From positions 2,310,001-2,342,000 of the forward strand of contig NC_010814.1 of assembly GCF_000020385.1 (NCBI RefSeq): a stretch of DNA of 32,000 bases, given 5' to 3'. The translations under genes and the position numbers were made by a program. This DNA comes from Trichlorobacter lovleyi SZ. GTDB lineage: Bacteria; Desulfobacterota; Desulfuromonadia; Geobacterales; Pseudopelobacteraceae. The notes below the pieces were generated by a model, which saw only the letters and a list, made by a program, of their open reading frames with translations, was not told the DNA's origin and searched no databases. Shown in pieces: positions 13,602 to 32,000 of the stretch (the stretch's first letter is position 1; each line of letters begins with the position of its first letter).

Positions 13602-14263
13602 GCCGTGCCACACCGCGACTGCGCATGTTCGCCGGGCCAAACGGTTCGGGCAAAAGCACAATAAAAGCAGTCGTTGAAGAGGCAATAGGACCGGATCTGT
13701 TCGGCGTGTATCTCAACGCCGACGACGTTGAGTTTGCAATACGACAGTCAAGATTCCTGGATGTGTTCAGTGTGTGGGGTAAAAACCTCTGCTGAAGAGA
13801 TTCTCGAATTTTTCAGAACCTCCCCATTCCTCGCTGAAAAGGGATTGGCCGAGGATGCGGCACGGTTGGTGTTTGCAAACGGGAAACTTTCCTTCCAGTC
13901 CATTGAGGTGAATTCCTACTTTGCTTCGGTTGCGGTCGATTTCCTGAGGCAGAAACTCCTCGATTCCGGTATTACCTTCACGTTTGAAACCGTCATGTCC
14001 CATCGAAGTAAAGTTGAATTCCTCAAACTGGCTCAAGACAAAGGCTTCCGGACGTACCTTTACTACGTGGCAACCGAAGACCCTGATATTAATGTCTCCC
14101 GCGTGGAATCCCGCGTTGCACAGGGTGGGCACAATGTCAACAGGGACAAAATCGTTGAGCGATACTCCCGTTCGTTGGAGTTGTTGTCCGAGGCGGTTGG
14201 CTATGCCAATCGAGCCTATATTTTCGATAACTCCTCTGCTGAAAAAGTCTGGATTGCAGAAGG
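13598..14263 (+). pseudogene. Zeta-toxin/COG4185-type P-loop kinase-like toxin gene, frameshifted near 13760-13795 and interrupted at its 3' end by IS21
   Basis: Frame A: MSRATPRLRMFAGPNGSGKSTIKAVV... (Walker A) stops at 13795. Frame B continues with ...SAEEILEFF...ITFTFETVMSH...GFRTYLYYVATEDPDINVSRVESRVAQGGHNVNRDKIVERYSRS, the family-typical core. The tracked ORF tail VNRHAILTHFRV is IS terminal sequence. Confidence 0.7.
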
Positions 14264-14331
14264 TGTGAATCGGCATGCAATATTGACCCACTTTCGGGTG
14301 TAATCGGCGTCCAAAATTGACCCACCTCAGC
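14264..14331. repeat. IS21 left terminal inverted repeat region (two internal repeat copies)
   Basis: tgtgAATCGGCATgcaatATTGACCCAC...AATCGGCGTccaaaATTGACCCACctcagc matches the reverse complement of 16630-16687. Confidence 0.8.
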
Positions 14332-14382
14332 ACCTCCTCCATTCTCTTTGGCATCATCCAGAGAGAGGAGCTTTGAAAGGAG

Positions 14383-15897
14383 ATGCTGCTAGTGGAATCC
14401 ATCCGTAAAATCCGCCAGGCTTACCACCGGGACAAGAAACCAATCAGGCAGATAGCCCGTGAGTTTCATCTGTCTAAGAACACCGTCAAGAAAATCATCA
14501 GAAGTGACGTAACCGATCAGGTTTATACCCGCACCGAACAGCCCAGGCCAAAGCTTGCTGCATTTGAAGAACGTCTCAAAGGACTGTTGTCTGAAGATGC
14601 CGTAAAGCCAGTCCGCCATCGTCGTAGTGCCCAGTTATTGTTTGAGACGCTACAGCGGGAAGGATTTGAAGGTGGCTATGACAGCGTCCGTCGTTACATC
14701 CAGCAGCAGCGCAAAGAGACCGGCGGCGGCGTAGCCGCAGCCTTTATTCCGCTATCCTTTGATCCTGGTGAGGCATTTCAGTTTGACTGGAGCTATGAGC
14801 AGATTGAGTTGGGTGGGATCATCGTAAAGGTCAAGATTGCTCAGTTTCGCCTCTGTAACAGTCGGATGCCATTTTGCGTGGCCTACACACGTGAGAGCCT
14901 GGAGATGGTTCTGGATGCTCATATCAAGGCATTCAGCTTCTTTGGTGGTGCCTGTCGGCGTGGTATCTACGACAACCTAAAAACCGTAGTAACCAAAGTC
15001 CTGATGGGCAAGGATCGTGTATTCAATCGTCGGTTTTTGAGTCTGGCCTCCCACTACCTGTTTGAACCGATAGCCTGCACTCCTGCTGCAGGCTGGGAGA
15101 AGGGGCAGGTAGAGAATCAGGTAGGCCTTGTGCGCAAGCGTTTCTTCGCCAAACGGCGGACATTTACCAACCTTTCTGAGCTAAACCAGTGGCTGCAGGA
15201 ACAATGTCTGGACTACGCAGCAACCCAGAAACATCCTGACAACCCACTCCTGACGATCAATGACCTGTTTAAGGAGGAACGCCGGCAGCTTCTCACGGTA
15301 ACGGTTCCGTTTGACGGTTATCTGGAAAGCGATGCCAAGGTATCTTCTACCTCCCTGGTCTCATTTGACCGCAACCGTTACAGCGTCCATGTCTCTGCTG
15401 TTGGCAACCCGGTCACGGTACGGGCCTATGCTGATCGTCTGACCTTTGTCCAGAGCGGCAGAACCGTAGGATTCCACAAACGGCACTTTGGTCGTGATCA
15501 GGTCTTCTATGATCCCTGGCACTATCTGGAGGCACTGAAGAAGAAGCCGGGAGCACTCAGAAACGGTGCACCGTTTAAGGAATGGAATTTGCCGGAATCT
15601 ATTGAGCAAATCCGTAGTGCCCTTGCCAAGCACCGTGATGGTGACCGGCAGTTTGTCGGGATACTGGCGGTTGTCTCCTACTATGGCATTGAAGCAGTAA
15701 CACAGGCATGCACTGATGCATTGGCAGCCAATACCATCAGTCGGGATGTCGTGCTTAATCTGTTGTCCCGAAACGATGAAGAACCGACACCAACGGCAGA
15801 TCCTGCAGCAAAACTGCCGGTTTTGATCATACCGCCTGTAGCTGACTGCAGGCGGTATGACCTGCTGCTTGCCGGAGGTGCCTGTGCTACTGCGTGA
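14383..15897 (+). CDS. istA: IS21-family transposase IstA
   Basis: 504 aa. N-terminal HTH ([20 protein letters not shown]), a DDE-type core (FQFDWSY...GIYDNLKT) and the typical IstA length. The start could instead be the GTG at 14392. Confidence 0.9.
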
Positions 15898-16621
15898 GAA
15901 ACTGCAAAAGGCCATGGAGACCCTTGGGCTGCATGGCATGAAGACTGCCTGTGACGAGCTGATCGCCACAGGCATCAAACAACGGGCCACACCGGAGAAG
16001 ATCCTGTTTGAGCTGCTTAATGCAGAGCTGGCTGAACGGAGAATCAGAAGTATCCGCTACCGCCTGAGTCAGGCAAGGTTTCCAGTAGAGAAGGACCTGG
16101 ATCACTTTGAGTTTACGGATACACCGATCAACGAGACACAGGTCAGAATGCTGTATGAGGGAGGCTTTCTTACTGAAAAGAGTAATATCATTCTGGTAGG
16201 TGGAACCGGTACCGGCAAGACCCATCTGGCCATTGCCATTGCACGGCAGGTGATCAGAAACGGTAAGCGTGGCCGATACTTCAACCTGCTGGATCTGGTC
16301 AACCAACTAGAACAGGAAAAGCTAAGCGGACGCGGAGGAAAGCTTGCAGAGGCACTCTGCAGGCTTGATCTGGTTGTGCTGGACGAACTGGGCTATCTGC
16401 CGTTCTCAAAGGCTGGAGGACAGCTGCTGTTTCACCTTATATCAAAGCTGTACGAGAGAACATCGCTTATCATTACCACTAACCTGACCTTTGGAGAATG
16501 GCCGCAGGTGTTCGGTGATGGCAAAATGACCACGGCACTTCTGGACAGGGTTACCCATCACTGCGAAATCGTCGAAACAGGAAATGAAAGCTGGAGAATC
16601 AAAACCAGAAACTCAGACTAA
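15884..16621 (+). CDS. istB: IS21-family helper ATPase IstB
   Basis: Walker [15 protein letters not shown], Walker [12 protein letters not shown], and the C-terminal [20 protein letters not shown] at 15884 is preceded by GGAGG, and the gene overlaps the istA stop. The ORF track starts it at 15857. Confidence 0.9.
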
Positions 16622-16629
16622 AATCAACC

Positions 16630-16687
16630 GCTGAGGTGGGTCAATTTTGGACGCCGATGGTGGGTCAAATTTCAATGCCGATTGACA
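16630..16687. repeat. IS21 right terminal inverted repeat region
   Basis: gctgaggtGGGTCAATtttggACGCCGATggtGGGTCAAAtttcaATGCCGATTgaca is the inverse of the left end. Confidence 0.8.
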
Positions 16688-16743
16688 ACAGAGGTGCAAG
16701 GAAGTATGCCAGAGATATGCTGAACTGCAAGCGCGCTGGGTAA
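16688..16743 (+). pseudogene. Displaced 3' remnant of the zeta-like toxin gene
   Basis: Joining 14263/14265 to about 16697 restores the frame as ...WIAEG-ARKYARDMLNCKRAG-stop (TAA at 16741-16743). The flanks carry CAGAAGGTG on the left and CAGAGGTG on the right. Confidence 0.5.
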
Positions 16744-17124
16744 TATTTATGTGCTTGTACTCTAACCTTTAAAATTGCAGCCAGTATGCACAAGCCCTCT
16801 GGCCTGTCCCGCCCTTGGCGTTTCCCCCTATGGGTAGGGGTGGGGTTGTCCGCTCCGGTGACTCTGGGGAGGTGCTGGGGCAGTACTTGTCTGATCCTGT
16901 CAGGGCGGCTTGCACTCAGTCGCTTGACCTGCAAGGGTGCTGTCCTTCATCGGGTGCAAGACATAAAGCACAACATGCAGCGTGTAGGGCTGGGTGTTGC
17001 AGTCAGGGTGGTATGTAGCGGTGCAGTGCTGGTATGGCTTGACAGGCTAGCGCTTGCTTGCTGTGCTGCTCTCTGGCCTGAAGTGTAACCGATTAGTAAC
17101 CTGCTGAGATTTAGAGGGCTGTTC

Positions 17125-17154
17125 TTGTCATGGGTGCTTGAATCTGGGTATAAT
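17125..17154 (+). promoter_or_regulatory. Candidate sigma-70 promoter TTGTCA-N18-TATAAT in orphan intergenic DNA
   Basis: -35 at 17125-17130 and a perfect -10 at 17149-17154. No ORF lies downstream, and it points toward the hairpin at 17226-17255. Confidence 0.3.
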
Positions 17155-17185
17155 CTGATGTGATGCTTTGGGCTAGGGATTCGCT

Positions 17186-17207
17186 CAAAGGATACCCAAA
17201 GGATACC
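17186..17207. repeat. Perfect tandem direct repeat, 2 x CAAAGGATACC
   Basis: Read directly: 17186-17196 and 17197-17207 are identical. The 10-mer AAAGGATACC recurs inverted at 13305-13314. Confidence 0.9.
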
Positions 17208-17216
17208 AATTGACTA

Positions 17217-17255
17217 AAATAAAAAAGAGGCTACAGACTCAACTCTGTAACCTCT
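17217..17255 (-). terminator. Rho-independent terminator downstream of tRNA-Pro
   Basis: Minus-strand RNA reads AGAGGUUACAGA-GUUGAG-UCUGUAGCCUCU, a 12-bp stem with one G-U pair, followed by UUUUUUAUUUU. Confidence 0.8.
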
Positions 17256-17264
17256 TATTATTAT

Positions 17265-17341
17265 TGGTCGGAGCGAAACGATTTGAACGTTCGACCCCCT
17301 GCTCCCAAGGCAGGTGCGCTACCAGGCTGCGCTACGCTCCG
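17265..17341 (-). tRNA. tRNA-Pro (anticodon UGG), CCA encoded
   Basis: Manual cloverleaf of 77 nt: acceptor CGGAGCG/CGCUCCG, D stem GCGC/GCGC, anticodon stem CCUGC/GCAGG with loop CUUGGGA, T stem GAACG/CGUUU with loop UUCAAAU, then ACCA. Confidence 0.9.
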
Positions 17342-17392
17342 AAAAGAAAGATTATTTACCACACGCAGCGGGCTGATAGCAAGCAAAAAGTG

Positions 17393-17701
17393 CTATTTTT
17401 CTTCAATCCGCCCCGCCCAGACCGGATCACCGGAAAACTGGTGGCGCAGATGTTCTTCAGGGATCTGGCGGTAAAACTCTTCCGCCGTGAATGAAAACCG
17501 GTAGGACTGGACGTAGTCCATAATGATTCCGGCGGCTTCATTCAACCTGCGGATACGTTCCGGGTCAATGTCGGCATGCAAATCAGGGTGGGCCTTCCTG
17601 ATCAGAGTACGGTGGCGCTGTTTGATCCGCTTGATGCTCAGCAGGTCATTTTCATGAAAGCCGAACAGGTACAGCGCCTCTTTTAGTTCTGCAAAGGTCA
17701 T
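17393..17701 (-). CDS. Small stand-alone J-domain protein
   Basis: 102 aa. IKQRHRTLIRKAHPDLHADIDPERIRRLNEAAGII carries the HPD tripeptide. Its start lies 7 nt downstream of the dxs stop. Confidence 0.6.
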   Translation of the reverse strand: MTFAELKEALYLFGFHENDLLSIKRIKQRHRTLIRKAHPDLHADIDPERIRRLNEAAGIIMDYVQSYRFSFTAEEFYRQIPEEHLRHQFSGDPVWAGRIEEK

Positions 17702-20728: not shown

Positions 20729-20871
20729 ACCTGCCCCCGTAAATGTGAAACGGCATTATACTTTGATTACGGATGAATCGTCAACCTCAAGCCGCCAGAA
20801 CAATCTTCCCATACCTGGCAAACTCTGTAATAATCACCCTCAATTATACGTCAGACAGACCAGAGGTATCC

Positions 20872-22293
20872 GTGAACGTACTTTTTATCCACCCCCACGG
20901 CAGCAACTGGATGCCGGGAATGCAGGATATCACCACCATCTTTAATGTCATGCCGCCGTTGGGGATTCTTTCCATTGCGGCCTGGCTGGAAAAACATCAG
21001 GTGCCGGTTGAGATCATTGACTGTTATGCCACCCCGCTGACGCAGCAGGAGCTGGTGAATGAGGTGTTGCGCCGCAAACCGGATGTCGTGGCTTTTTCCT
21101 GCACCACCTCCTCGTTTCTGGAGGGCAACCGGATTGCCGAGGCGATCAAGGCGGCCGACAGCGGCATCACCACCGTCTTTGGCGGTGCCCATGCCTGCAC
21201 CATGGGAGCGCCGCTGCTGGACCGTTTCCCGGCCATTGACTGCCTGGTGATGGGGGAAGGCGAGCAGACCATGCTGGAGCTGGTTCAGGCCGGATTTCAG
21301 AACCTGGCGAACATCCCCGGCGTGGCCTACCGGGACAGCAATGGCCAGGCTGCCCAGTCTGCCCCAAGGGAGTTGATCGCCAATCTGGATGAGCTGCCGT
21401 TCCCGGCCTATCACCTGCTGCCCGGTTTTCCCCAGAAGTACAAGCTGCCGCTGTTCAGTTCGCCGACCGCACCCAACTCCAGCATCATCTCCAGCCGGGG
21501 CTGCCCCTACCAGTGCTCCTACTGTGACCGCTCCGTGTTCTCGCGCGGTTTCCGTTTCAACTCACCGGAGTACATCCTTGAGCATGTGGCCATGCTGCAG
21601 CGTGACTACGGCATCAGACATGTCTTTTTCTACGATGACCTGTTCACCTTTGACCGCAAGCGGGTGGCCCACTTTTGTGAGCTCAAGGCCAGGATGGGGC
21701 TGCAGGTCACCTACAACTGCATTGCCCGCCTGGAACATGTGGATCAGGAGCTGCTGAGCCTGCTGAAAGGCTCCGGCTGCTGGCAGGTCAATTTCGGCAT
21801 CGAATCCGGTGACCCGGAAATACTGAAAAAACACCGCAAGTTCTACGGTCTGGACGAGGTGGGACGCAAACTGCAGATGGTGAAAGACAGCGGCATGCGT
21901 GTTAAAGGGCTCTTTATGGTGGGGCTGCCGGGCGAGGATGAGGCGGCCATCCGCCGCACCATTGACTACGCCCTGTCCCTACCGCTGGATGAGATTAACG
22001 TAACCAAGTTTACCCCGTTTCCCGGTGCGCCGGTTTTCAAGACCCTGGAGCAGTTTGGCCAGTTTAACGAGGCATGGGAACTGATGAACTGCATGAACTT
22101 TGTCTTTATCCCCCATGGCATGACCAAGCAGCAGCTTGAGGACCTGTACAATGAATTCATCCGCCGCTTCTACCGCCGCAGCCGGATTCACTGGGGCTAC
22201 ACCAAGATGATCTGGCAATCCCCCCATAGCGTACTGGATTTCCTGAAAAACCTGCCAGCCATCCTGAAGTTTGAAAGGAAACAAAAATGGTAA
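20872..22293 (+). CDS. B12-binding-domain radical SAM enzyme (class B type)
   Basis: GTG start at 20872 with GAGG 5 nt upstream. N-terminal Rossmann-like cobalamin-binding region (VLFIHPHG...PPLGILSIAAWLEKHQVPVEIIDC...VVAFSCTTSS) and a CxxxCxxC motif in SSRGCPYQCSYCD. Confidence 0.85.
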   Translation: MNVLFIHPHGSNWMPGMQDITTIFNVMPPLGILSIAAWLEKHQVPVEIIDCYATPLTQQELVNEVLRRKPDVVAFSCTTSSFLEGNRIAEAIKAADSGITTVFGGAHACTMGAPLLDRFPAIDCLVMGEGEQTMLELVQAGFQNLANIPGVAYRDSNGQAAQSAPRELIANLDELPFPAYHLLPGFPQKYKLPLFSSPTAPNSSIISSRGCPYQCSYCDRSVFSRGFRFNSPEYILEHVAMLQRDYGIRHVFFYDDLFTFDRKRVAHFCELKARMGLQVTYNCIARLEHVDQELLSLLKGSGCWQVNFGIESGDPEILKKHRKFYGLDEVGRKLQMVKDSGMRVKGLFMVGLPGEDEAAIRRTIDYALSLPLDEINVTKFTPFPGAPVFKTLEQFGQFNEAWELMNCMNFVFIPHGMTKQQLEDLYNEFIRRFYRRSRIHWGYTKMIWQSPHSVLDFLKNLPAILKFERKQKW

Positions 22294-22874
22294 AGGGCAT
22301 TATTTCTGTTCTGTTTGTCGCTCTTTTCAGTGGTTCTGCATTGGCTGACAATCAGGTAAAAACCACAGCAGATGCCCGTTACGAACTGTCCCTGCTGACC
22401 GGCTACGGTATCACCCATCGCGGCTTTGGCGAGACCCGCACCCAGGTACAGACCTGGGATGCCATTGCCCGCCTGGGCTGGTATCTGTCTGATGATATTG
22501 GCAAGGGCAGCTGGTACCAAGGCAGGCATCAACTGCTGGTGGAACTGCCGTACCATCTGGTGTTGGACCATGGGGGCAGATCAATGGTGGGGGGATACTT
22601 ACTTGGAAGCTGGAAGTTTACCAGCCTGAGTCACCTAAAACCTTACATATTTGCCGGTGGTGGACCGGTCTATGTGGGTCTGGGGCTGCCCACTATGGGA
22701 GCTAAACTTAACTTCAGCTATCAAGGTGGCACCGGGGTACAGATTCCTGTAGCAGAGGCAACCATGCTGAACCTGGAGTACCGCTATCACCATATCTCCA
22801 ATGCCGGCACAGCCTCCCCCAATGAGCCGCTTAACTCCAGCAAGTTCCTGCTGGGGCTAAGCTGGTTGTACTGA
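22287..22874 (+). CDS. Acyloxyacyl hydrolase / lipid A 3-O-deacylase (PagL)-like outer-membrane beta-barrel
   Basis: 195 aa. It has a signal peptide, alternating beta-strand pattern, the catalytic-type motif YRYHHISNAG...NEPLNS, and a C-terminal aromatic residue (SWLY). The ATG overlaps the radical SAM stop. Confidence 0.7.
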   Translation: MVKGIISVLFVALFSGSALADNQVKTTADARYELSLLTGYGITHRGFGETRTQVQTWDAIARLGWYLSDDIGKGSWYQGRHQLLVELPYHLVLDHGGRSMVGGYLLGSWKFTSLSHLKPYIFAGGGPVYVGLGLPTMGAKLNFSYQGGTGVQIPVAEATMLNLEYRYHHISNAGTASPNEPLNSSKFLLGLSWLY

Positions 22875-22885
22875 GAACAAACTGA

Positions 22886-23179
22886 CTATTTTTTGAAAGT
22901 ATCTTTGATCTCTTCCCCTGCCTTTTTCGCCCCGGCCTTAATCTCCGTACCGGCCTGCTTGAACCCCGCCTTGGTTTCTTTGCCAACCTGTTTCAAGGCC
23001 TCTTTGGTTTCCTTGGCAGCTTTTTTGGTATCCTCTTTAATGGTCTTACCAGCTTGTTTAAAGGCTTCTTTAGTCTCGCGGCCGGACTGTTTTACCTCTT
23101 CGGTAAACTCATTAGCCCGGACCGGTGCTGCCAGACAGACCAGCAGCACCAGCTGACACAGCACTGAAAAACGCAGCAT
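22886..23179 (-). CDS. Secreted Lys-rich protein built from 6.5 tandem 11-residue repeats
   Basis: Signal peptide MLRFSVLCQLVLLVCLAAPVRA, then EEVKQSGRETK / EAFKQAGKTIK / EDTKKAAKETK / EALKQVGKETK / AGFKQAGTEIK / AGAKKAGEEIK / DTFKK. It lies 3 nt downstream of the MMPL gene. Confidence 0.65.
   Translation of the reverse strand: MLRFSVLCQLVLLVCLAAPVRANEFTEEVKQSGRETKEAFKQAGKTIKEDTKKAAKETKEALKQVGKETKAGFKQAGTEIKAGAKKAGEEIKDTFKK
22889..23101. repeat. Degenerate 33-bp tandem coding repeat (11-mer protein repeats)
   Basis: The periodicity was read from the translated sequence. The DNA copies have diverged. Confidence 0.7.
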
Positions 23180-23182
23180 GCT

Positions 23183-25702
23183 CTACCTCCTTGGTGTAAT
23201 AACCAGTCGTAATGTTGCCGGCACCAGCAGCAGGGCTGCCAGCACCGTGAAGCCTATCCCGAAGTTGGTGGCCCAGCCGATGGACGACATGGCGCCGTAG
23301 TCAGTAAAGGCCAGGGAACCAAAACCGGCAACCGTGGTCAGGGCCGACAGCAGCACAGAGCGGGCTGCCTGAATGAAGTTCTGTTCCTGCTGCTCCGTCA
23401 GACCTTCAGCGCAGCGATGCTGGATATGCAGACCGTAATCACTGCCCATGCCGACAATGGTCACCAGCACCATAATGTTCATAAAGTTCAGCTTCATTCC
23501 CACCAACGCCATGGTACCCAGCATGGCCACGGCGCCAAACAACACCGGTCCCAGTGACGCCACGATGCCATTCAGGCTCTTGAAGTGAGTCAGTAACAGC
23601 GCCAACACAAGCAGACTGCCCAGGCTAACACCAGTAACGGCGCTTCTGCGTACCGCTGCCAGCAGTTCCTGACTGACCAGATCAGTACCGGTCACCCGTG
23701 CTGAAGGCACATTCTTGTGTAGCTCCTGCACAAACCCGGCCTGATCAAGCTGACCAGCCTTGAAGTAGAGGTAGGTTAAGGAATGCCAGCCGCTGCGATC
23801 ATGCACCAGGTGCCGATCCACCACCCCCCGCAGGGGCGAGGCCTCCAGCTGTGCAATAATCACGGATTCATCCAGTACAGAGGTCAGACTATTGGCCCGG
23901 AGTTTATTCAGGTACGACTCAAACGACGCAACGCTAAAGCCCTTATCATACAGTTTTTTGGCAAGCTCATCAGCACGAAAACCGGTCCCCTGCAACCGGG
24001 CAACAATCTGCTCTTGATCAGCCCGACGGTTCATGATCTGACCCAGGCTGGACCAGGCCTGCAGCCTGCCCTCTGCTGCCAGCCGCGCTGCCAGCGCCTC
24101 CACTGCCAGATTCTGCTGCATCACCGCAGCCTGGCTGGTCCCATCAACCGCCACCAGCAGGCTTTTAGGGGCCAGATTCAGGTGCTGCTCCACCAGTTCC
24201 TGGGCATGAAACGCCTCTGAATGCTGGGGCTGCAGGTTCTTCAGCTCACCATCAAATGAGGTGCGCAGACTAAGCAGAAAAAAGAACAGCACCAGGCCGC
24301 CTGCCCCCCACAACAGGGGACGCGACCATCGGCCGGCCAGACGCCAGAGCCTGACCAGCCCCAATCCCGGCAAGGCACGGTACAGACGGTCAGAGGTATC
24401 TGTCTTGCGCAGTAACACCGGCATCAGGAACAGGGTGGCATACAGGGAAAAGATCACCCCCAGCCCCACCAGCAGCCCCAGCTCGGACAAGGCCCGCACC
24501 TCTGCCCAGCCCAGGGCCAGAAACGGCAGTGCCGTGGTAGTTGCGGCAGTAAACAGCCCCTGACCGGTATCAACCACAGCCAGGCTTACGGCCTGATCAG
24601 TTGTGGCACCGGCAACCCGTTCAGTATGAAAACGATCATAGAGATGAATGGAATAATCAGTGCCCAGACCGATGATCAGGGCCATGAAGGCAAAGGAGAT
24701 AATATGGATACTGCTGAGAAACAGACCTGCCGTGCCCAGGGCCAGCAGCACCCCGACCGCCAGTACCACCGGAATCATCAGGGTGGGCCAGATCCGGCGG
24801 TAGACCGCGTAAAAAATCCCCAGCACCACCACCAGTGAGGAAAGGATACAGGAAAGGATGTTGTACTTCATGGCTGCTTCATCAATCACCGCACTGATAT
24901 GGGCACCGGCGCAGGAGATCTTGACCGGTGACCCGCTACGGGCCTGGTTGATGCCTGCCACCAGCTTGCGGGCAAAGGCCATTTCCTGCACCGGCTTGAC
25001 CGGCTCGGCAATCATGATCAGGACGCGACCATCCCGTGACAGAAAATAGGGAGATGCCGGGTCCATATCCAGGGCCTGACTGCCGGCCTTGAGGCGGGGC
25101 AGGATCAGGCTGCGCAGCCCCAATGGATCAGCAAGAGAGAGCCCTACGCCACTGGCGCCGATGGAACCGGCCAGTTCTGCGGTCAGTTGATCCAGTGCCT
25201 GATCAACGGCCTTGGGTTTGAAACGTTCAAGCAGTGCAGGGGTATTATTAAGCGGTACAAAGGCTGCGGGATGGGCTGCGCTGAATGCCACCAGATCCGC
25301 AAAACGCCGGGCTTCCGACTCTTCATAGATCCGGTAGACCACCCTTTTGAAGGCCGGCGCGCCATCCACCTGCAGGGTGCGCAACCGCTCTGCCAGACGG
25401 GATGCCTCAGCAGGCAGGACAGCAGGGTCTCCCTCCAGCAGGAAGTAGGCCTGGTTGGCGCCGCCGGACCACTCCAGTGAATCAAGCAGCAGACGCATGG
25501 CAGGACGATCCGCCGGAAACAGGCGGAAGATGTCAGTCTCAAAATGAATGGTCAGCAATGATGAAACAGACAAAAAAACAAGGGCAAGCAATGAAACAAT
25601 CACCAGACGGGGGGATTGTCTGGTGATCCGGTCGATCCAGCCAAGGTGACGGATGGTCTGGGCGTTGCTCCAGACAAGCAGGCGGTTAAGCAGCTCAAAC
25701 AC
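23183..25702 (-). CDS. MMPL/RND-superfamily exporter (two 6-TM bundles, two periplasmic loops)
   Basis: 839 aa. Two hydrophobic blocks (about residues 280-440 and 690-830) each follow a large soluble loop. Topology resembles the 'predicted exporter' of aryl-polyene clusters or HpnN. Confidence 0.8.
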   Translation of the reverse strand: MFELLNRLLVWSNAQTIRHLGWIDRITRQSPRLVIVSLLALVFLSVSSLLTIHFETDIFRLFPADRPAMRLLLDSLEWSGGANQAYFLLEGDPAVLPAEASRLAERLRTLQVDGAPAFKRVVYRIYEESEARRFADLVAFSAAHPAAFVPLNNTPALLERFKPKAVDQALDQLTAELAGSIGASGVGLSLADPLGLRSLILPRLKAGSQALDMDPASPYFLSRDGRVLIMIAEPVKPVQEMAFARKLVAGINQARSGSPVKISCAGAHISAVIDEAAMKYNILSCILSSLVVVLGIFYAVYRRIWPTLMIPVVLAVGVLLALGTAGLFLSSIHIISFAFMALIIGLGTDYSIHLYDRFHTERVAGATTDQAVSLAVVDTGQGLFTAATTTALPFLALGWAEVRALSELGLLVGLGVIFSLYATLFLMPVLLRKTDTSDRLYRALPGLGLVRLWRLAGRWSRPLLWGAGGLVLFFFLLSLRTSFDGELKNLQPQHSEAFHAQELVEQHLNLAPKSLLVAVDGTSQAAVMQQNLAVEALAARLAAEGRLQAWSSLGQIMNRRADQEQIVARLQGTGFRADELAKKLYDKGFSVASFESYLNKLRANSLTSVLDESVIIAQLEASPLRGVVDRHLVHDRSGWHSLTYLYFKAGQLDQAGFVQELHKNVPSARVTGTDLVSQELLAAVRRSAVTGVSLGSLLVLALLLTHFKSLNGIVASLGPVLFGAVAMLGTMALVGMKLNFMNIMVLVTIVGMGSDYGLHIQHRCAEGLTEQQEQNFIQAARSVLLSALTTVAGFGSLAFTDYGAMSSIGWATNFGIGFTVLAALLLVPATLRLVITPRR

Positions 25703-25712
25703 GGCCAGTATC

Positions 25713-26441
25713 CTATTTCGGTTTCAGGACTGAAAGGGGGTACAGCCGCAGTCCCTGCAACGGCACGGCAAACATCTGCGGTTCAAGTTCTGTATTGATT
25801 TCAGGTTCTTCGAGAGTCAGGCGGATCCGGTCACCTTCGGCACTTTCCATCTGCAGCTCCATCGGGACCAGCACACCATCAAGTACCGCATAATTCCGGT
25901 AACGGACCTGCTCACCGCTGGCCAGGCTTTTTTCCACGATCAGCCCCTGTTTCAGGGTAATCTGTTCCTTCACGCCCCGCTCGTTGATCTGCTCAACAAC
26001 ACCGTTTTGCGGGGCATTGGCCGGTATGTCGGCGGCCAGAACCCACTGCAGCATGGCAAGCCCCTGTTGGCCGGTTGCAGCAGGTAACTCCCTGATATTT
26101 CCCAGAAAGGCCTCGCCGCTTGCAGGATAGGCCAAAGTCAGTTGAGGGCCATCCAGCCGGGTTTCCATAACCGTGGTGCCAAAGGGGGAGAGCATGATCA
26201 GCCGCATCTGGTCAGGACGACGATAGACCATGAACCCCCGACCTGAGATGTTTTTCTCACCGGAGCGCAGGGCAACGGTCACGCCGGAGCTGAGGGTTTC
26301 CACCTTTCTGCCGGGAACCACCTGCGAGGTATCAAGGCGCGGCGTTGAGGTAACACAGCCGGAAAACAGCGCGGTCAACAGAACAAGCCACAGCAGATGA
26401 GCCAATGAAGATATCTGCTTGAAATGGAAGCGGTTACGCAT
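25713..26441 (-). CDS. Lipoprotein (LolB-like / DUF3261-like position in cluster)
   Basis: 242 aa. The signal peptide ends in the lipobox LFSGC. It sits between the LolA-like and exporter genes. The family assignment is a guess. Confidence 0.5.
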   Translation of the reverse strand: MRNRFHFKQISSLAHLLWLVLLTALFSGCVTSTPRLDTSQVVPGRKVETLSSGVTVALRSGEKNISGRGFMVYRRPDQMRLIMLSPFGTTVMETRLDGPQLTLAYPASGEAFLGNIRELPAATGQQGLAMLQWVLAADIPANAPQNGVVEQINERGVKEQITLKQGLIVEKSLASGEQVRYRNYAVLDGVLVPMELQMESAEGDRIRLTLEEPEINTELEPQMFAVPLQGLRLYPLSVLKPK

Positions 26442-26444
26442 CAG

Positions 26445-27056
26445 CTACTCCAGACGAAAATCAGCATCGGACAGGCCGACATTTTTGCGGGTCTTGCGAA
26501 AGGTCATCACGGTTTTATCACCGGCCCGCTCTTCAAGCACCAGTTTGCGCACCGTGCCATCATCATGCAGCACAACCGTTAACTCCTTCAGTTGTCCACC
26601 CTTGGCCGGTCTGATGGTCACGCTGGTCTGGCTGCCGGTCTGTTCTGCCCGCACCTCCATCCCCTCCGGCACAGCAGTTATCTGCTTTGCCAGTGTGGCA
26701 AACCAGCGGGACAATCCCTGCTCAGGTGGCAGCACAATCCGCTGCAGTTCCCCCTGATTGCCCAGGCGTTGCAGCAGCACCGTATCTTTCAGCAGCACCT
26801 TGCTGCTGTAGGGCGGCACCAGCTCCATGTAGAAACGGTCCGGTTTCTTGAAGCGGATCTGCCCCTGCATAACCAGTTTTTTCTTCATGATTGAGAGCTG
26901 TTTTTCCTGGGTCAGGTCTGCAGTAAAATCCTGCATGGTGCCAAAGGAACGGCGCAGCGCCTCCAGCCCTTCAACCGGGGTAAGGTTGCGGGCCTCTGCC
27001 TTCAGGGCTCCGGTCAGCATCAGCAGGGCAAACAAAAATGACAGCAACAATTTCAT
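26445..27056 (-). CDS. LolA-like outer-membrane lipoprotein carrier family protein
   Basis: 203 aa with a signal peptide. The LolA-like segment FTADLTQEKQLSIMKKKLVMQGQIRFKKPDRFYMEL follows. Confidence 0.7.
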   Translation of the reverse strand: MKLLLSFLFALLMLTGALKAEARNLTPVEGLEALRRSFGTMQDFTADLTQEKQLSIMKKKLVMQGQIRFKKPDRFYMELVPPYSSKVLLKDTVLLQRLGNQGELQRIVLPPEQGLSRWFATLAKQITAVPEGMEVRAEQTGSQTSVTIRPAKGGQLKELTVVLHDDGTVRKLVLEERAGDKTVMTFRKTRKNVGLSDADFRLE

Positions 27057-27466
27057 AACGGTCCAATCCCCAGTGTCAGGGTAACGTGTAACAGTTCTTC
27101 ATCCCCCACCAGCACCTGTCCTTCCACCAGACATAAGCGGCCAAAGGATTTGATGATCCGGGCGGTGACCTCCAGGGTCTCGCCAAGCTGCGGGGCGCGG
27201 CCAAAACGGGCCTGATCAACCGCAGCCAGAAAACCGCCCTCCCCTTGCTGCTCCACTGCTGCAATCCCGGAAAGCTGGGCAACCGCCTCAACCAGCAGGG
27301 TCTGGGGATAGGCCTGTAAAGCTGCGCTGGTCCGGTAACGGGCCCGGGCAAAGCTGCCCGGCTGCTGTTCCAGTACCTGGTCCAGCATGACAAAGGGATA
27401 GCGATGGGGCAGGTATGTGGTGGGATCAGGATTAAGCAGGGTCGCCACCAAGCACTGAAATGGCAT
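27053..27466 (-). CDS. FabZ/FabA-like hotdog-fold dehydratase homolog
   Basis: YLPHRYPFVMLDQVLE is the FabZ N-terminal signature. Where FabZ has GHFP this protein reads QAYP, so the His is not obvious. The start is ambiguous between 27466 and 27448, and the gene overlaps the upstream stop. Confidence 0.7.
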   Translation of the reverse strand: MPFQCLVATLLNPDPTTYLPHRYPFVMLDQVLEQQPGSFARARYRTSAALQAYPQTLLVEAVAQLSGIAAVEQQGEGGFLAAVDQARFGRAPQLGETLEVTARIIKSFGRLCLVEGQVLVGDEELLHVTLTLGIGPL

Positions 27467-28478
27467 AGTAGGGGCCTTCCGGCGAGGCAGCCAGCTGCAG
27501 CCCCTGCTCACCGGGCCGCAACGAAGCGGTCAAAAGCCCTAACGCTATGCCCCCCATGGCCAGTGAGCTGCCGATAATCCGGCCAGGATAACGGATTGTT
27601 GCGGCCTCTACTGTGCCGAGCAACGGTTGAACAGCCGGTTCAGGGCCGGTGAAGAACAGTTGATCACAACTATTTTGTGGCTGCAACAGCTGGTTGATCC
27701 CCTGCTGTTCTGCACCGGGCAGCAGGAACCCCACCGTGTTGATTGCGGTCAGCTGCGCTGCAATGGCAGCGCCCCGCTTGCGGGCATGTTCAGCCCGTTC
27801 CAGCACCAGTATGCCGCAGCCCTCACCAAAACCTGAGGCAAAGCGGTGTAACTGACCGGTAACCGCAAAGCCACGGATCATCTGGGGGGTCAGTTCATCC
27901 ACACCACCAGCCAGCATGATATCGGCCCGGCCTTCTTCAATAAAGCGACAGGCAGCCAGGATGGCGGATTCTGCAGAACAAAAGCGCTGGATAAAGGTGA
28001 TATTGGGGCCTTGCAGGCTATATTCAATGGAGGCGTTGCTGGCAGCAGCATTGGCAACCGTATTGGGAAACAGCATCGGCGACAGGCCTGGCACACCGGT
28101 CTGATAATAGCCGCTTAAAAACTCAGAGGCATTGGCAATACCGCCAAAGCCGGAACCCAGGGCAATCCCGATCCGGTCTGACGGGAAAGCGCCCTTGACA
28201 ATCCCGGCATCAGCCAGGGCCATACCAACCGTGGCAACCGCAAACTGGCTGGCGCGATCAAGTTTACGGGCCTTGAGCGGTGGAATAAAGTCAGTTGCCT
28301 TGAACTGATCAGCCTTACCCCAGCAATGACCAGTGGTGCCTGCTGCCAGATCCTCTGGAATCGGTTTCAGACAACTGGTGCCACTGATCAGCGCCTCAAG
28401 GGCCGGTTTGATGCCAATTCCTGCAGCAGATATGGCTGCAGAGCCGGTTATGGCAATGGCCGGTGCAAAACAATCCAT
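27432..28478 (-). CDS. Beta-ketoacyl synthase-like partner subunit (CLF-like, lacks the catalytic His pair)
   Basis: 348 aa with a thiolase fold. It retains Cys in IQRFCSAESAI, but the HGTGT and GHxxGAAG positions read differently (...GRIIGSSLAMGGIALG). Its ATG overlaps the KS stop (ATGA). Confidence 0.7.
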   Translation of the reverse strand: MDCFAPAIAITGSAAISAAGIGIKPALEALISGTSCLKPIPEDLAAGTTGHCWGKADQFKATDFIPPLKARKLDRASQFAVATVGMALADAGIVKGAFPSDRIGIALGSGFGGIANASEFLSGYYQTGVPGLSPMLFPNTVANAAASNASIEYSLQGPNITFIQRFCSAESAILAACRFIEEGRADIMLAGGVDELTPQMIRGFAVTGQLHRFASGFGEGCGILVLERAEHARKRGAAIAAQLTAINTVGFLLPGAEQQGINQLLQPQNSCDQLFFTGPEPAVQPLLGTVEAATIRYPGRIIGSSLAMGGIALGLLTASLRPGEQGLQLAASPEGPYYAISVLGGDPA

Positions 28479-29707
28479 CAGCAGACCTCCTGCTGCAGAG
28501 CTGCAGAGCCCAGCACAAGTGAAGTGACATTACCCCCAAAGGCAAAGGAATTGGACAGGACAATCCGGGTAGCTGTGGTACGACTGCCGCTATGGCCGTA
28601 ATCAAGATCACACTCCGGGTCAACACCCCTGAAATGCAGGGTCTGCGGAATGATACCGGCATTCAGGGCCAGCACGCTTGCCACTGCCTCAATGGCACCG
28701 GCAGCCCCCAGACAGTGCCCGGTTATCGCCTTGGTTGAGATCAACGGCACCTTGCCAGCCCGCTCTCCAAAGACCAGCTTGACCGCATTGGATTCAACCA
28801 CATCATTCAGGGGAGTACCGGTACCATGGGCATTGATCCAGCCAACCTGGTCATACGCAACTCCGGCAGCAGCCAGGGCTGCGTTCATGACCCTGGCAGC
28901 GGATTCACCGCCCGGTTCCGGCGCTGTCATATGATGGGCCTCACCCACCAGGGCATAGCCCAGCAGATAGCCCAGAATCTGCGCCCCCCTGCTACGGGCA
29001 GCCTGTTCCTCTTCCAGCACCATGAAGGCTGCCCCCTCACCCAGGGACAGCCCCTGACGTCCGGCACTGAACGGCGCACAGGGGTTGGGATCAACCACTT
29101 TCAGGGCATTGAAACCGGCAAAGGTCAACATGGCCAGGGCATCTGCCCCGCCGCACAGCATGGCCTGCTGGCGGCCGCTGCGGATCAGGTCAGCTGCCCA
29201 GCCAATGGCAGTACCGGATGAGGAACAGGCCGTGGTAATGCTGCCCTGGTAGCCGGCAAAGCCCAGTTCATGGGCAATGATCGTACTGCTGCAGTCAGGC
29301 AACAGGGTACGTAACAGACCGGGCCGGGCAGGCTTGTTTGACAGCTCCCCCTGCAGCCACGCTTCAGCGTGCAGCATGCCGCCAACTCCGCCACCAATAC
29401 AGACACCGATCTGGTAGGGATCATAGCAGCCGGTAACATCACTCATGGCAACCGCCTCGCGGGCTGCAATCAGGGCAAGCTGGTCAGTACGGGAGAGGTG
29501 GGTAACCTGGCGCCGGGTAAAGTACTCAGCAGGGTCATACCCTTTTACCTGACATCCGATTCGGGCCGGAAACTGCGATACATCAAACAGGTCAAGGGGT
29601 GCAATGCCGCTTGTACCCTGCAGAATCGCCTCCTGAAAGGCAGGAAGCGTCCTGGCAGCCCCGTTGATGGTGCCCAGACCGGTTATGACGATCCTCTTCG
29701 GGCTCAC
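28478..29707 (-). CDS. Beta-ketoacyl-ACP synthase (FabF/FabB-like KS)
   Basis: 409 aa. Active-site Cys in ITTACSSSGTAIG, and His residues in NAHGTGTPLND and KAITGHCLGAAG. The GTG start overlaps the fabG-like stop. Confidence 0.9.
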   Translation of the reverse strand: MSPKRIVITGLGTINGAARTLPAFQEAILQGTSGIAPLDLFDVSQFPARIGCQVKGYDPAEYFTRRQVTHLSRTDQLALIAAREAVAMSDVTGCYDPYQIGVCIGGGVGGMLHAEAWLQGELSNKPARPGLLRTLLPDCSSTIIAHELGFAGYQGSITTACSSSGTAIGWAADLIRSGRQQAMLCGGADALAMLTFAGFNALKVVDPNPCAPFSAGRQGLSLGEGAAFMVLEEEQAARSRGAQILGYLLGYALVGEAHHMTAPEPGGESAARVMNAALAAAGVAYDQVGWINAHGTGTPLNDVVESNAVKLVFGERAGKVPLISTKAITGHCLGAAGAIEAVASVLALNAGIIPQTLHFRGVDPECDLDYGHSGSRTTATRIVLSNSFAFGGNVTSLVLGSAALQQEVC

Positions 29708-30468
29708 AGAATGCCTCCATCAACCACCAGACATTGCCCGGTGATGTAGGCAGCTTTGGATGAGGCCAGAAATGCGATTGCATCAGCAATCTCGTCCGGC
29801 TGGCCGATCCTCCCCAGGGCAGATGATTTCACAATCCGCTCCACCTGATCCTGTTTCAAACCGGCGGTCATGTCCGTTTCAATCAGTCCGGCTGCAACAG
29901 CATTGACCCGAATCCCCATCGGCCCCAGCTCACGGGCAAGGGATTTGGTAAAACTGATGGCAGCCCCTTTTGTGGCAGCATAGTTGGTCTGCCCGGCAGC
30001 GCCGCTGATGCCGGAGATTGAAGAGACATTGATAATGGCTCCACTGCGGCGGGCCAGCATCTTACGGGCACCCCACTTGCAGCAGTGGAACAGGGGGGAC
30101 AGATTGGTACGCAGCACCGCATCCCAGTCATCTTCAGCCATCATGGCCAGAAAACCATCGCGGATAATCCCGGCATTGTTGACCAGGACATCAAGATACC
30201 CGCTTGCTGCAGTGGCAGCATCAATCAGGCTGGTTGCCCCGCTGGAAGTAGCAACATCAGCCTTGATGGTGGTGATACTGCCTGCCAGCTCTGCTGCATC
30301 CAGACGCAGCCTGTCCGCAGCCTCATCATTGTTCAGGTAGGCGGCAAAGACGGTGGCACCTGCTGCGGCAAAGCGCAGGGATACTGCCCGGCCAATGCCC
30401 CGGGTACCACCGGTAACCACGACAACGTTATGTTCAAATTCCAGTCCCATATCAAACAACCACCTCAA
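29704..30468 (-). CDS. 3-oxoacyl-ACP reductase (SDR, FabG-like)
   Basis: 254 aa. Cofactor motif VTGGTRGIGRA, NNAG, and a catalytic S...YAATK triad. Confidence 0.9.
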   Translation of the reverse strand: MRWLFDMGLEFEHNVVVVTGGTRGIGRAVSLRFAAAGATVFAAYLNNDEAADRLRLDAAELAGSITTIKADVATSSGATSLIDAATAASGYLDVLVNNAGIIRDGFLAMMAEDDWDAVLRTNLSPLFHCCKWGARKMLARRSGAIINVSSISGISGAAGQTNYAATKGAAISFTKSLARELGPMGIRVNAVAAGLIETDMTAGLKQDQVERIVKSSALGRIGQPDEIADAIAFLASSKAAYITGQCLVVDGGIL

Positions 30469-30488
30469 GATTCTATAAACAGATAGTA

Positions 30489-30611
30489 TTCCAGTTTCAA
30501 ATCAAGGATGAGATCAAGGCGGCGAGGAATTCGGCGACGCAGGCGTACACGCAGTACGTTGAGGAGCCGATGACGAGCCAACGCAGATATCGCCTTGAGT
30601 TGGAACTGGAA
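30489..30611. repeat. Long imperfect inverted repeat (19-bp arms, 85-nt interior) filling the radical-SAM/fabG-like intergenic gap
   Basis: TTCCAGTTTCAAATCAAGG (30489-30507) pairs with CCTTGAGTTGGAACTGGAA (30593-30611): 17 Watson-Crick pairs, one G-U in the plus-sense RNA and one mismatch. An inner GCGTAC-ACGCA-GTACGT hairpin is also present. Confidence 0.6.
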
Positions 30612-31994
30612 TCACTTCATCGGGGCGATTCTACTTCTTCCCATCCGCTTCAGCAACTTCCAAAGTGGTCCCCGCACCTTGAACATCCGCAACGCCTCCA
30701 GCATGGTGTCGCTGATATTCACCTCCAGACCCGGTACAATCCAGTTTTTACGCTGCATTGCCTGTTCTGTCACAATCGTTGAAAGCCGGTCCCTGATGGC
30801 CGGAGCCAGGTAAAAGGTAGGCTGCAGCAGATCTGTTTCAACGGTAATAATCCCCTCGTCCAGGGCGGTACGATACAGCCTGGTGCGGGGGTAGATCCGC
30901 ACCCCGGTCATGGCAATGACGGCGGTAGGATTCAGTTCATCCATCAGCTGAAAGGTATCCAGAATGGTCTCTTCTGTCTCTCCTGGTCCGCCAAAGATGA
31001 TGTAGTGGGCAAAATCCAGCCCCGCCTCCCGGCAAAGCAGCGAGGCAGATCTGACCTGTCCGAGTGTAAACGATTTACAGAGACTTGTTAACATGCCAGG
31101 TGAACCGGAGTCAGTGCCGAACTCAATCGCATCGCAGCCGGCCCGCTGCATCAGATCCAGAAGCTGCGGTGTGATAAAATCCGGATTGATAAAGGCAGAC
31201 CAGTTAACCTGTAACCCGGCATCAATCATGGCTGTGCAGAGCTGTTCACAAAAGCTGACCGGGTAGTTAAAGATATCATCCACAAAATAGAGATAATCAA
31301 CACCATGATCATTCACCAGACTGCGGATCTCGGCAATAATCTCAGCCACCGGTCTGGTCCGCATCTGCTGGCCTTCCAGCAGCGGATAGGTGCAGTAACT
31401 GCAACCAAAGGGACAGCCCCGTTTGGTCTGCAGATTGGCCATGCCCCCTTCCTTCAGGTAGCGGGCCACATCAAACAGCTCCCGATCAGGACTGCCGATT
31501 CTGGAAACTGTTTGCGGCGGGATAAAGTCGATTTTCCCCGGCAGCACAACACCGGGCAGATCAGCCGGATCAATCCCTTGTGCCAGCCGGTCCAGCAGAA
31601 GGGGCAGCTGCTGCTCCCCCTCCCCCACCAGACCGATATCAGCACCGCAGGCAGCCAGGATCTCCAGCGGCATCAGGCTGAAACCTGAACCACCCACAAT
31701 GACGGTTGCCCTGCCTTTGCAGACCGTTACCAGATCAGTCAGACCGGACAGATAGGAACGGGCATCAGGCCAGGTAACATTATCCAGATTACGCAGCGAA
31801 ATGATCACCGCCTCAGGCTGTTCAGCAACAACCGTTGCCTGGAGCGCAGCAAGGGGATCGGCTTCAAAACAGAGATCCAGCACTGCCAACTGATGACCGG
31901 CCTGTTTGAGCGGGGCTGCCAGAAAGGCCAGACCAAGGGGAAAGACCGGATAGGGGGAACGCTCCCGGTTTGCCGAAACCAGCAGCAGCTTCAT
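30612..31994 (-). CDS. B12-binding-domain radical SAM enzyme (second copy, divergent)
   Basis: 460 aa. N-terminal cobalamin-binding-like region (KLLLVSANRERSPYPVFPLGLAFLAAPLKQAGHQLAVLDLCFE) and a CxxxCxxC motif in TKRGCPFGCSYCTYP. Confidence 0.85.
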   Translation of the reverse strand: MKLLLVSANRERSPYPVFPLGLAFLAAPLKQAGHQLAVLDLCFEADPLAALQATVVAEQPEAVIISLRNLDNVTWPDARSYLSGLTDLVTVCKGRATVIVGGSGFSLMPLEILAACGADIGLVGEGEQQLPLLLDRLAQGIDPADLPGVVLPGKIDFIPPQTVSRIGSPDRELFDVARYLKEGGMANLQTKRGCPFGCSYCTYPLLEGQQMRTRPVAEIIAEIRSLVNDHGVDYLYFVDDIFNYPVSFCEQLCTAMIDAGLQVNWSAFINPDFITPQLLDLMQRAGCDAIEFGTDSGSPGMLTSLCKSFTLGQVRSASLLCREAGLDFAHYIIFGGPGETEETILDTFQLMDELNPTAVIAMTGVRIYPRTRLYRTALDEGIITVETDLLQPTFYLAPAIRDRLSTIVTEQAMQRKNWIVPGLEVNISDTMLEALRMFKVRGPLWKLLKRMGRSRIAPMK

Positions 31995-32000
31995 CGGCAG

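Follow-up and report, generated by a model that had tools for sequence, protein, structure and literature searches.

A TIGR04072 radical SAM gene cluster of Trichlorobacter lovleyi SZ with a probable role in a specialised envelope lipid

The stretch of Trichlorobacter lovleyi SZ DNA analysed here (contig NC_010814.1, positions 2,310,001 to 2,342,000; 32,000 nucleotides in all, hereafter the window) carries eleven genes in a tightly packed array at 20872-31994. Our results suggest that this array is probably the downstream half, together with a satellite gene pair, of a specialised envelope-lipid cluster of about 16-20 genes, in which a B12-binding radical S-adenosylmethionine (SAM) protein of family TIGR04072 stands beside type II fatty acid synthase-like (FAS-II) enzymes and a predicted set of lipid exporters. 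Gene content, gene order and conservation are direct observations. Judged by its proteins, the cluster is a member of the TIGR04072 cluster family, which is widespread, has been known since 2009 and is uncharacterised. A preliminary description of this DNA had listed the genes with their order, coordinates and domains, and open reading frame (ORF) calls and scans of the proteins against Pfam and NCBIfam bore that list out. The finding is real and its first interpretation was largely right; the cluster is less new than that description assumed, since such clusters had already been noted in Geobacter (Rattray et al. 2009, Biol Direct 4:8).

Results

The TIGR04072 protein and the conservation of its cluster

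The first gene of the minus-strand transcription unit codes for a protein that matched TIGR04072 with 392.4 bits against a curated cut-off of 360, over residues 2-448 of 460, and it is the sole protein of the cluster to pass an equivalog cut-off. With this score the connection to the ladderane lipids of anammox bacteria, which had been raised before as an unproven parallel, becomes more than an analogy. PF02310 and PF04055 matched this upstream radical SAM protein with 49.4 and 67.3 bits. The three cysteines of its CxxxCxxC core (C194, C198 and C201) are invariant among 30 diverse homologues, and the closest solved structures are TsrM, AprD4 and 9CCB. The T. thiogenes counterpart is 93-94% identical, and homologues at E <= 1e-30 amount to 1635 representatives at 50% clustering.

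Conservation of the neighbourhood was counted by tblastn mapping, with each species represented by one genome (about 45 in Geobacterales), and a locus was eligible if its flank on the side in question reached 9 kb or more (45 loci upstream, 34 downstream). An order of about 16 genes is kept in about 45 Geobacterales genomes. It begins with genes for a deacetylase (PF01522 and DUF3473), a family 2 glycosyltransferase (GT2), a SPASM radical SAM protein, a Lip_A_acyltrans acyltransferase, an acyl carrier protein (ACP) and a B12-binding radical SAM protein (DUF4070, with up to two more), and continues with FabD, a thioesterase, the TIGR04072 protein, a ketoreductase (KR), a beta-ketoacyl-ACP synthase (KS), its chain-length-factor-like partner (CLF), a dehydratase of hotdog type, LolA, LolB and MMPL. 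On the upstream side, the thioesterase and FabD genes were each present in 45/45 loci, the LpxL-family acyltransferase and ACP genes each in 44/45, the SPASM radical SAM gene in 43/45, and the GT2 and deacetylase genes each in 42/45. Downstream, KR, KS, CLF, dehydratase and LolA were each found in 32 of the 34 loci, and LolB and MMPL each in 23. The KR gene directly follows the TIGR04072 gene in 32/34 Geobacterales loci, an adjacency that also appears in 18/20 loci of Syntrophales/Thermodesulfobacteriota. Co-conservation of the radical SAM, KS and export genes, on which the preliminary description had let its proposal depend, held in the related genomes for both radical SAM genes.

The cluster holds four to six radical SAM enzymes, most of them with B12 domains. 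A further radical SAM gene, coding for 317 aa, lies directly upstream of the deacetylase gene in T. thiogenes (L011, 2357-3310) and brings the count for the Trichlorobacter cluster to at least five.

The upstream half is cut off by the end of the window. No ACP, thioesterase, acyltransferase or glycosyltransferase had been seen in the window before, which is literally true, but these genes are present just outside it, in contig L001 and in relatives; they are missing because the window cuts the cluster, and its last 10 bases belong to the thioesterase gene. Contig L001, which encodes exactly the TIGR04072 protein of the window, continues upstream with a 143-aa YbgC-like 4HBT thioesterase that overlaps the start of the radical SAM gene by 4 nt, followed on the same strand by an island of type I restriction-modification (R-M) and DarTG genes, a FabD-like gene and another B12-binding radical SAM gene. 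The search beyond position 32000 that had been suggested earlier thus recovered the thioesterase, FabD and extra B12-binding radical SAM genes in L001 itself as well as in close relatives, and the ACP, acyltransferase, GT2 and deacetylase genes in close relatives. Upstream in T. thiogenes, the genes for a polysaccharide deacetylase, GT2, SPASM radical SAM protein, LpxL-family acyltransferase, ACP, B12-binding radical SAM protein, FabD and thioesterase were all found. The ACP of the homologous cluster in Geobacter sp. SVR (L008) is of PRK09184 type (71.3 bits, cut-off 70), and that genome is without the LpxL-family acyltransferase.

The island of contig L001 spans 8.4 kb (1147-9576), combines type I R-M genes with a DarT/DarG (Macro) toxin-antitoxin pair and is situated between the FabD-like and thioesterase genes. 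It is co-directional with the lipid operon, with start/stop overlaps of 1-4 nt at both sides. The same site is occupied in L007 (1814-9579), where the 84% relative has type I R-M genes without DarTG, and there is no insertion in T. lovleyi (L172), T. thiogenes, L009 or L010. About 45 other Geobacterales genomes of the mapped set likewise lack the island. A variant TIGR04072 cluster was observed in a metagenome-assembled genome of Syntrophales (L071, 71-16589); it has an LpxL-family acyltransferase, two full-length KS genes and a FabA-like dehydratase, together with BcrAD/BadFG-type activase and DUF2229/HGD-D-like (2-hydroxyacyl-CoA-dehydratase-like) genes, and it is without Lol/MMPL export genes.

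Organisation of the locus

The minus-strand genes are transcribed in the order radical SAM, KR, KS, CLF, hotdog, LolA, LolB, MMPL and 97-aa protein (Table 1). Neighbouring genes overlap by 1 to about 35 nt or are 3-11 nt apart, except that about 160 nt separate the radical SAM gene from the KR gene. This unit converges on the rSAM2-PagL pair, 11 nt separating the two stop codons. Terminator-like sites in the window were no commoner than expected from shuffled controls, none of the internal ones being convincing, and the tight or overlapping junctions along with this lack of enrichment support a predicted operon structure. Promoter-like sites were uninformative except for one at 20806-20834, upstream of rSAM2. 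Rfam matched one tRNA only in the whole window, with no cobalamin or other riboswitch near the cluster.

The window is co-linear with T. lovleyi CP058409.1, with 88% nucleotide identity over 14.8 kb. The layout in T. lovleyi (L172) is the same: dxs-ispA-xseB, then rSAM2-PagL, converging on the genes for the 97-aa repeat protein, MMPL, LolB, LolA, dehydratase, CLF, KS, KR, radical SAM protein, thioesterase and FabD. Nucleotide identity with T. lovleyi rises from the 88% average to 97% in the spacer that separates the radical SAM and KR genes, and this spacer folds somewhat better than shuffled sequence (RNA z = -2.4). Rfam gave no match to it, and it is a candidate site for an internal promoter or a regulatory RNA element. 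In the relative L007 the gap between the same two genes is just 23 nt.

Table 1. Features of the cluster and its satellite gene pair in the window (aa, amino acids).
Feature	Position	Strand	Basis
B12-binding radical SAM enzyme (rSAM2), 473 aa	20872-22293	+	PF02310, PF04055
PagL-family outer-membrane beta-barrel esterase (predicted), 195 aa, signal peptide	22287-22874	+	PF09411
Secreted Lys/Glu-rich 11-residue-repeat protein, 97 aa	22886-23179	-	Signal peptide, periodicity
MMPL/HAE3-type resistance-nodulation-division (RND) inner-membrane exporter (predicted), 839 aa	23183-25702	-	PF03176
LolB-like outer-membrane lipoprotein with DUF3261 signature	25713-26441	-	PF03550, PF11659, lipobox
LolA-like periplasmic lipid carrier (predicted), 203 aa, signal peptide	26445-27056	-	PF03548
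FabZ/ApeP-like hotdog protein	27053-27511	-	FabZ NCBIfam match below cut-off
KS partner, chain-length-factor-like (CLF), 348 aa	27432-28478	-	PF00109
FabF-like beta-ketoacyl-ACP synthase (KS), 409 aa	28478-29707	-	fabF TIGR03150 below cut-off
FabG-type 3-oxoacyl-ACP reductase (KR), short-chain dehydrogenase/reductase	29704-30468	-	TIGR01830
Conserved intergenic spacer between radical SAM and KR genes	30451-30611	-	Nucleotide identity with T. lovleyi
TIGR04072 B12-binding/radical SAM protein (rSAM_ladder_B12), 460 aa	30612-31994	-	NCBIfam
YbgC-like 4HBT thioesterase gene, 3' end, cut by the window end	31991-32000	-	Contig L001

Chain-building enzymes and the comparison with ladderane clusters

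The KR matched TIGR01830 with 268.9 bits, and its start is likely at 30450, giving 248 aa. The KS has its catalytic Cys, His and His all present; it reached 377 bits with the fabF model, below the cut-off of 493, and its best matches in the Protein Data Bank (PDB) are FabF proteins at 295 bits, while the KS of aryl-polyene (APE) clusters, 6SMO_B, scored 165 bits. The CLF matched the N-terminal KS domain PF00109 (94.6 bits) and not PF02801. It is without the catalytic His, its C-terminal third containing no His at all, and the position of the KS Cys aligns to a Phe with a Cys one position further on, in a QRFCSAE motif; at least 98% of 56 orthologues keep this second Cys. The CLF is also closer to FabF (99 bits) than to chain 6SMO_C (59 bits), which we take to be ApeC. 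These comparisons suggest that KS and CLF are both FabF-derived, without orthology to ApeO and ApeC.

The hotdog gene probably starts at 27466, giving a protein of 137 aa; homologues are called at 126-137 aa, with a weak ApeP-like Pfam match. The FabZ model of NCBIfam scored 57.9 bits, below its cut-off. The protein retains an LPHRYPF motif and the context of the catalytic Glu (LVEAVAQ), and it is without the His-bearing loop, showing a gap at GHFP when aligned to FabZ 6N3P. Its score with an ordinary FabZ was 41.6 bits, against 32.7 bits with the anammox amxFabZ 8AYC. Gene absences stated here for enoyl reductase, phytoene dehydrogenase, ArnT and AMP-binding enzymes cover six annotated neighbourhoods. 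No enoyl reductase is encoded in these, and because the cluster encodes none, a chain with double bonds or hydroxyl groups is probable.

Clusters resembling the ladderane clusters proposed for Kuenenia were described from Geobacter, Pelobacter and Desulfotalea by Rattray et al. (2009), and a metagenomic study of the Cariaco Basin reported antiSMASH 'ladderane' biosynthetic gene clusters in non-anammox phyla including Desulfobacterota, their function unknown. Later work and a 2026 review describe the ladderane radical SAM enzyme as uncharacterised, and according to the review the modification of ketoacyl lipids by radical SAM enzymes has so far been proposed just for ladderanes and jawsamycin. 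No genetic system exists for anammox bacteria, and attempts at heterologous expression were unsuccessful. In the searchable literature no product was found for the Geobacter-type cluster, and on Geobacter with ladderane, arylpolyene, lipid A or radical SAM nothing beyond Rattray et al. 2009 was found; a match to an already characterised pathway, which the preliminary description had named as a possible outcome, was not found there.

Compared with the anammox clusters as published (Rattray 2009, Dietl 2023), the Geobacterales cluster shares the hallmarks of TIGR04072 'ladderane-type' clusters, namely the signature B12-binding radical SAM protein in the company of paralogues of FabF and FabG, an ACP of its own and additional radical SAM genes. 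Unlike them, it shows no phytoene-dehydrogenase-like gene and no amine-oxidase/phytoene-desaturase Pfam family in the six neighbourhoods, and its dehydratase is not specifically amxFabZ-like and is without the His loop. It also has additions over the anammox type, which are the LolA-like, LolB-like and MMPL genes, the LpxL/PatA-family acyltransferase, the GT2 with its deacetylase and the rSAM2-PagL pair; descriptions of these additions were not found in the searchable literature.

A true ladderane or other cyclobutane lipid, for which the TIGR04072 enzyme would cyclise a polyunsaturated acyl-ACP, is one alternative, and we judge it very unlikely. Membership in rSAM_ladder_B12 and the synteny of such clusters with that of Kuenenia (Rattray et al. 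2009) argue for it, and a polyene intermediate is conceivable given that no enoyl reductase is cluster-encoded. However, Desulfotalea, which carries a syntenic cluster, yielded no ladderanes (Rattray et al. 2009), and ladderanes are described as confined to anammox Planctomycetota. The phytoene-dehydrogenase-like gene is missing from the annotated neighbourhoods, the hotdog protein is no closer to amxFabZ than to ordinary FabZ, and the role of TIGR04072-type radical SAM enzymes in ladderane synthesis is itself unproven.

Export genes and the comparison with aryl-polyene clusters

The LolA-like protein matched PF03548 with 46 bits and, below cut-off, the flexirubin LolA2 model of NCBIfam as its best match (62 bits). 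The LolB-like protein, with a lipobox LFSG|C, exceeded the cut-offs of both PF03550 (43.1 bits) and PF11659, the DUF3261 family (25.3 bits). Of all the genes in the cluster, this one has by far diverged most from its T. lovleyi counterpart (65-74% nucleotide identity, where the overall value is 88%), which suggests fast evolution of an outer-membrane receptor. The exporter matched PF03176 with 115.7 bits and HAE3 with 170 bits, the latter below cut-off. The last gene of the operon codes for a 97-aa protein built of amphipathic repeats of 11 residues, about 6.5 in number (periodicity z = 9.7 at lag 11), with a weak match to Apolipoprotein A1/A4/E (23 bits, below cut-off); in Trichlorobacter (L092-L101, L172) the MMPL gene is likewise followed by a homologue, and L013, L091, L130 and L152 have weaker ones. 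In some Geobacter loci (L089; L102-L104), an AsmA/DUF748-like gene comes after the MMPL gene.

APE clusters have been described with a route made of LolA-like ApeL, DUF3261-LolB-like ApeN and RND-type ApeM proteins and with a lipid anchor of N-acetylgalactosamine-phosphoglycerol. The parallel with the core and export parts of these clusters, drawn before from the window alone, holds for function and architecture, that is, for the KS with its His-less partner, KR, dehydratase and LolA/LolB/MMPL genes. Both cluster types have a type II KS with an inactive partner, a KR, a hotdog dehydratase, a dedicated ACP and a 4HBT thioesterase, which correspond in their core to the roles of ApeO, ApeC, ApeQ and ApeP; both have a glycosyltransferase and an acyltransferase for the lipid anchor, and a set of LolA-like, DUF3261/LolB-like and RND exporter proteins, all of which exceed the Pfam cut-offs here. 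In contrast to APE clusters, no AMP-binding or adenylating (ApeH-type) starter enzyme was found in the six neighbourhoods or the scanned ORFs of the window, and no SAM methyltransferase was seen. The KS is FabF-like and not ApeO-like, the partner likewise, and the APE gene lists consulted include neither radical SAM enzymes, of which this cluster has four to six, nor a PagL-family esterase. By these family assignments, the cluster is predicted to work like an APE cluster, yet it is outside the APE family.

The rSAM2-PagL pair and the enzymes for a lipid acceptor

The 473-aa start of rSAM2 is backed by 473-aa homologues at 100% coverage. The protein matched PF02310 (79.7 bits) and PF04055 (92.9 bits), its cluster motif is CPYQCSYC, and its orthologues are 66-98% identical in Geobacterales. 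The rSAM2 and PagL genes overlap by 7 nt and are predicted to be translationally coupled. Linkage was counted on metagenome contigs, the test for cluster genes requiring long flanks on both sides (20 loci). Of 48 eligible loci, 34 have a co-directional PagL gene no more than 4 kb downstream of rSAM2, and at least two cluster genes are present within 10 kb of rSAM2 in 12/20. In the window, L089, L091, L092-94 and L172 the pair is convergent with the MMPL gene, and in L090, L106, L114 and L129 it is divergent from the deacetylase gene, so its linkage survives rearrangement to either end of the cluster, which indicates a shared function. A 53% homologue of rSAM2 is found inside the more distant cluster L165. 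Some Geobacter loci (L089, 9521-11132; L102-L104) have genes for DedA/VTT-family and BrkB-family membrane proteins between rSAM2 and PagL; these and the AsmA/DUF748-like gene are candidates for cluster-linked handling of envelope lipids.

The product of the second gene matched PF09411 with 74.7 bits against a cut-off of 23 and has the motif YRYHH(I/V)SNAG, in which H168, H169, S171 and N172 are invariant in 18 homologues. A phmmer search against the PDB gave no match at E <= 1, and the AlphaFold model (predicted local distance difference test 75.5) had PagL of Pseudomonas aeruginosa, 2ERV, as its best PDB match (E 4e-6, TM 0.69-0.70). Pfam score, invariant motif and modelled fold support membership in the PagL family. 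Like 2ERV it belongs to PF09411, is best matched in fold by an eight-stranded beta-barrel and has a conserved His-x-Ser-Asn motif; unlike P. aeruginosa PagL, to which it is 21-22% identical, its gene is coupled to that of a cytoplasmic B12-binding radical SAM enzyme. By analogy with PagL, the substrate of the predicted esterase could be lipid A or equally the cluster's own lipid.

The acyltransferase encoded upstream scored 123 bits with the phosphatidylinositol mannoside acyltransferase PatA, which acylates a sugar, and 70 bits with lipid A lauroyl transferases, passing no cut-off. The GT2 resembles the polyprenyl-phosphate sugar synthases AglJ, PpgS and ArnC. An acyltransferase resembling PatA, with a GT2 like polyprenyl-phosphate N-acetylhexosamine (HexNAc) synthases and a deacetylase, suggests an amino-sugar lipid as acceptor.

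The same enzymes would also fit a remodelling of lipid A, in which the dedicated ACP, KS pair, KR and dehydratase would produce a special (very long or branched) chain, an LpxL-family enzyme would place it on lipid A as a secondary chain, PagL would remove the 3-O chain, and the GT2 and deacetylase would add an amino sugar much as ArnC and ArnD do. The rhizobial acpXL-lpxXL system provides an analogy. The Lip_A_acyltrans gene adjoins the ACP gene in 44/45 loci and does so in the Syntrophales variant L071 too, which has the acyltransferase but is without Lol/MMPL genes; membership of the esterase in the PagL family is backed by sequence and fold, and the GT2 is ArnC-like and paired with a deacetylase. 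Even so, we consider lipid A remodelling, though a serious rival, unlikely. Lipopolysaccharide uses the Lpt pathway, and a dedicated set of MMPL, LolA-like and LolB-like proteins would be needless for it. The acyltransferase scored 123 bits with PatA against at most 70 bits with models of lipid A acyltransferases, and an ArnT-like transferase was not seen in the annotated neighbourhoods.

Tailoring of hopanoids or other isoprenoids was considered as well, with the radical SAM enzymes and the RND pump acting like HpnJ, HpnR and HpnN. The best NCBIfam names do point that way, HpnJ for rSAM2 (181 bits, followed by ApyD and BchE), HpnR for the extra B12-binding radical SAM protein (246 bits) and HpnN for the MMPL protein (184 bits), and xseB, ispA and dxs adjoin rSAM2 both in the window and in T. 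lovleyi (L172). These scores are nevertheless far below the cut-offs of 578, 650 and 752 bits, and so are those of rSAM2 with ApyD and BchE. The xseB-ispA-dxs genes are housekeeping genes replaced elsewhere by FUR (L007), by a cupredoxin gene and RuvB (L089) or by pst/phoU (L091), and the invariant neighbours are FAS-II-type genes and the ACP gene. With no cut-off reached and the dxs/ispA adjacency not conserved, the hopanoid reading was rejected as highly improbable.

Other features of the window

A stretch of low GC content (0.48-0.54) at 13000-17400 contains an IS21-family element (istA 14383-15897, istB 15857-16621), an unannotated ORF of 211 aa at 13767-14402 (-) and a tRNA gene at 17268-17341 (-). 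This block looks like an insertion, because RuvB-Hda is no more than about 2 kb from rSAM2 in Geobacter sp. AOG2. Downstream of RuvB and Hda, 11294-12796 (+) codes for a 500-aa protein with C-terminal leucine-rich repeats (weak Pfam match) and no NCBIfam match.

Discussion

The chemistry of an envelope-lipid cluster of this kind can be outlined from the families involved. A FabD-like transacylase would load malonyl groups onto the dedicated ACP, and the FabF-derived KS with its His-less partner, the FabG-type KR and the hotdog dehydratase would elongate the chain iteratively. Unactivated carbons of the chain may then be altered, by C-methylation or C-C bond formation, by the radical SAM set, which comprises the TIGR04072 protein, one to three further B12-binding enzymes, one SPASM enzyme and rSAM2. 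The YbgC-like thioesterase might edit or release intermediates. The LpxL/PatA-family acyltransferase is a candidate for joining the chain to a sugar-lipid acceptor, which the GT2, similar to polyprenyl-phosphate-HexNAc synthases, and the deacetylase would prepare. Delivery of the lipid to the outer membrane would fall to the MMPL, LolA-like and LolB-like proteins, as proposed for aryl-polyene lipids, and the secreted amphipathic repeat protein may assist in it. The PagL-like esterase of the outer membrane would act last and trim an ester-linked acyl chain, either of the cluster lipid or of lipid A.

Several points weigh against the proposal of one such cluster. No member of the family has a known product, so each of these chemical steps is drawn from family membership, and the only assignment at equivalog level, TIGR04072, is to a family without demonstrated activity. 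The FabZ His loop is missing from the hotdog protein, so that dehydration may depend on a partner or may be absent. The radical SAM half is found without an adjoining KR-to-MMPL half in 2/34 loci (L040, L062), and 8/20 rSAM2 loci lack cluster genes over a distance of 10 kb, which makes the modules separable. The R-M/DarTG island inside the operon of L001 could also affect its expression.

A bolder form of the envelope-lipid proposal is an undescribed class of outer-membrane glycolipid whose acyl or polyene chain several cobalamin-dependent radical SAM enzymes would rebuild into a multiply branched or carbocyclic skeleton, the TIGR04072 enzyme doing the same C-C chemistry as for the ladderanes of anammox bacteria. 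At present we hold this to be quite doubtful. If it were true, cultivable Geobacter and Trichlorobacter would offer a genetic entry to the ladderane problem.

What is new here is a further member of the family and a fuller list of its parts, not a new kind of system, such clusters having been known since 2009. TIGR04072 radical SAM enzymes are nonetheless the leading candidates for formation of the ladderane rings, and since the cluster occurs in cultivable bacteria, among them T. lovleyi (L172), T. thiogenes, G. hydrogenophilus and Oryzomonas, the chemistry of this family, and with it part of the ladderane question, could become open to test. A third case of a ketoacyl lipid modified by radical SAM enzymes, here with its own path to the outer membrane, would genuinely extend this short list and would bear on the envelope biology of metal-reducing bacteria.

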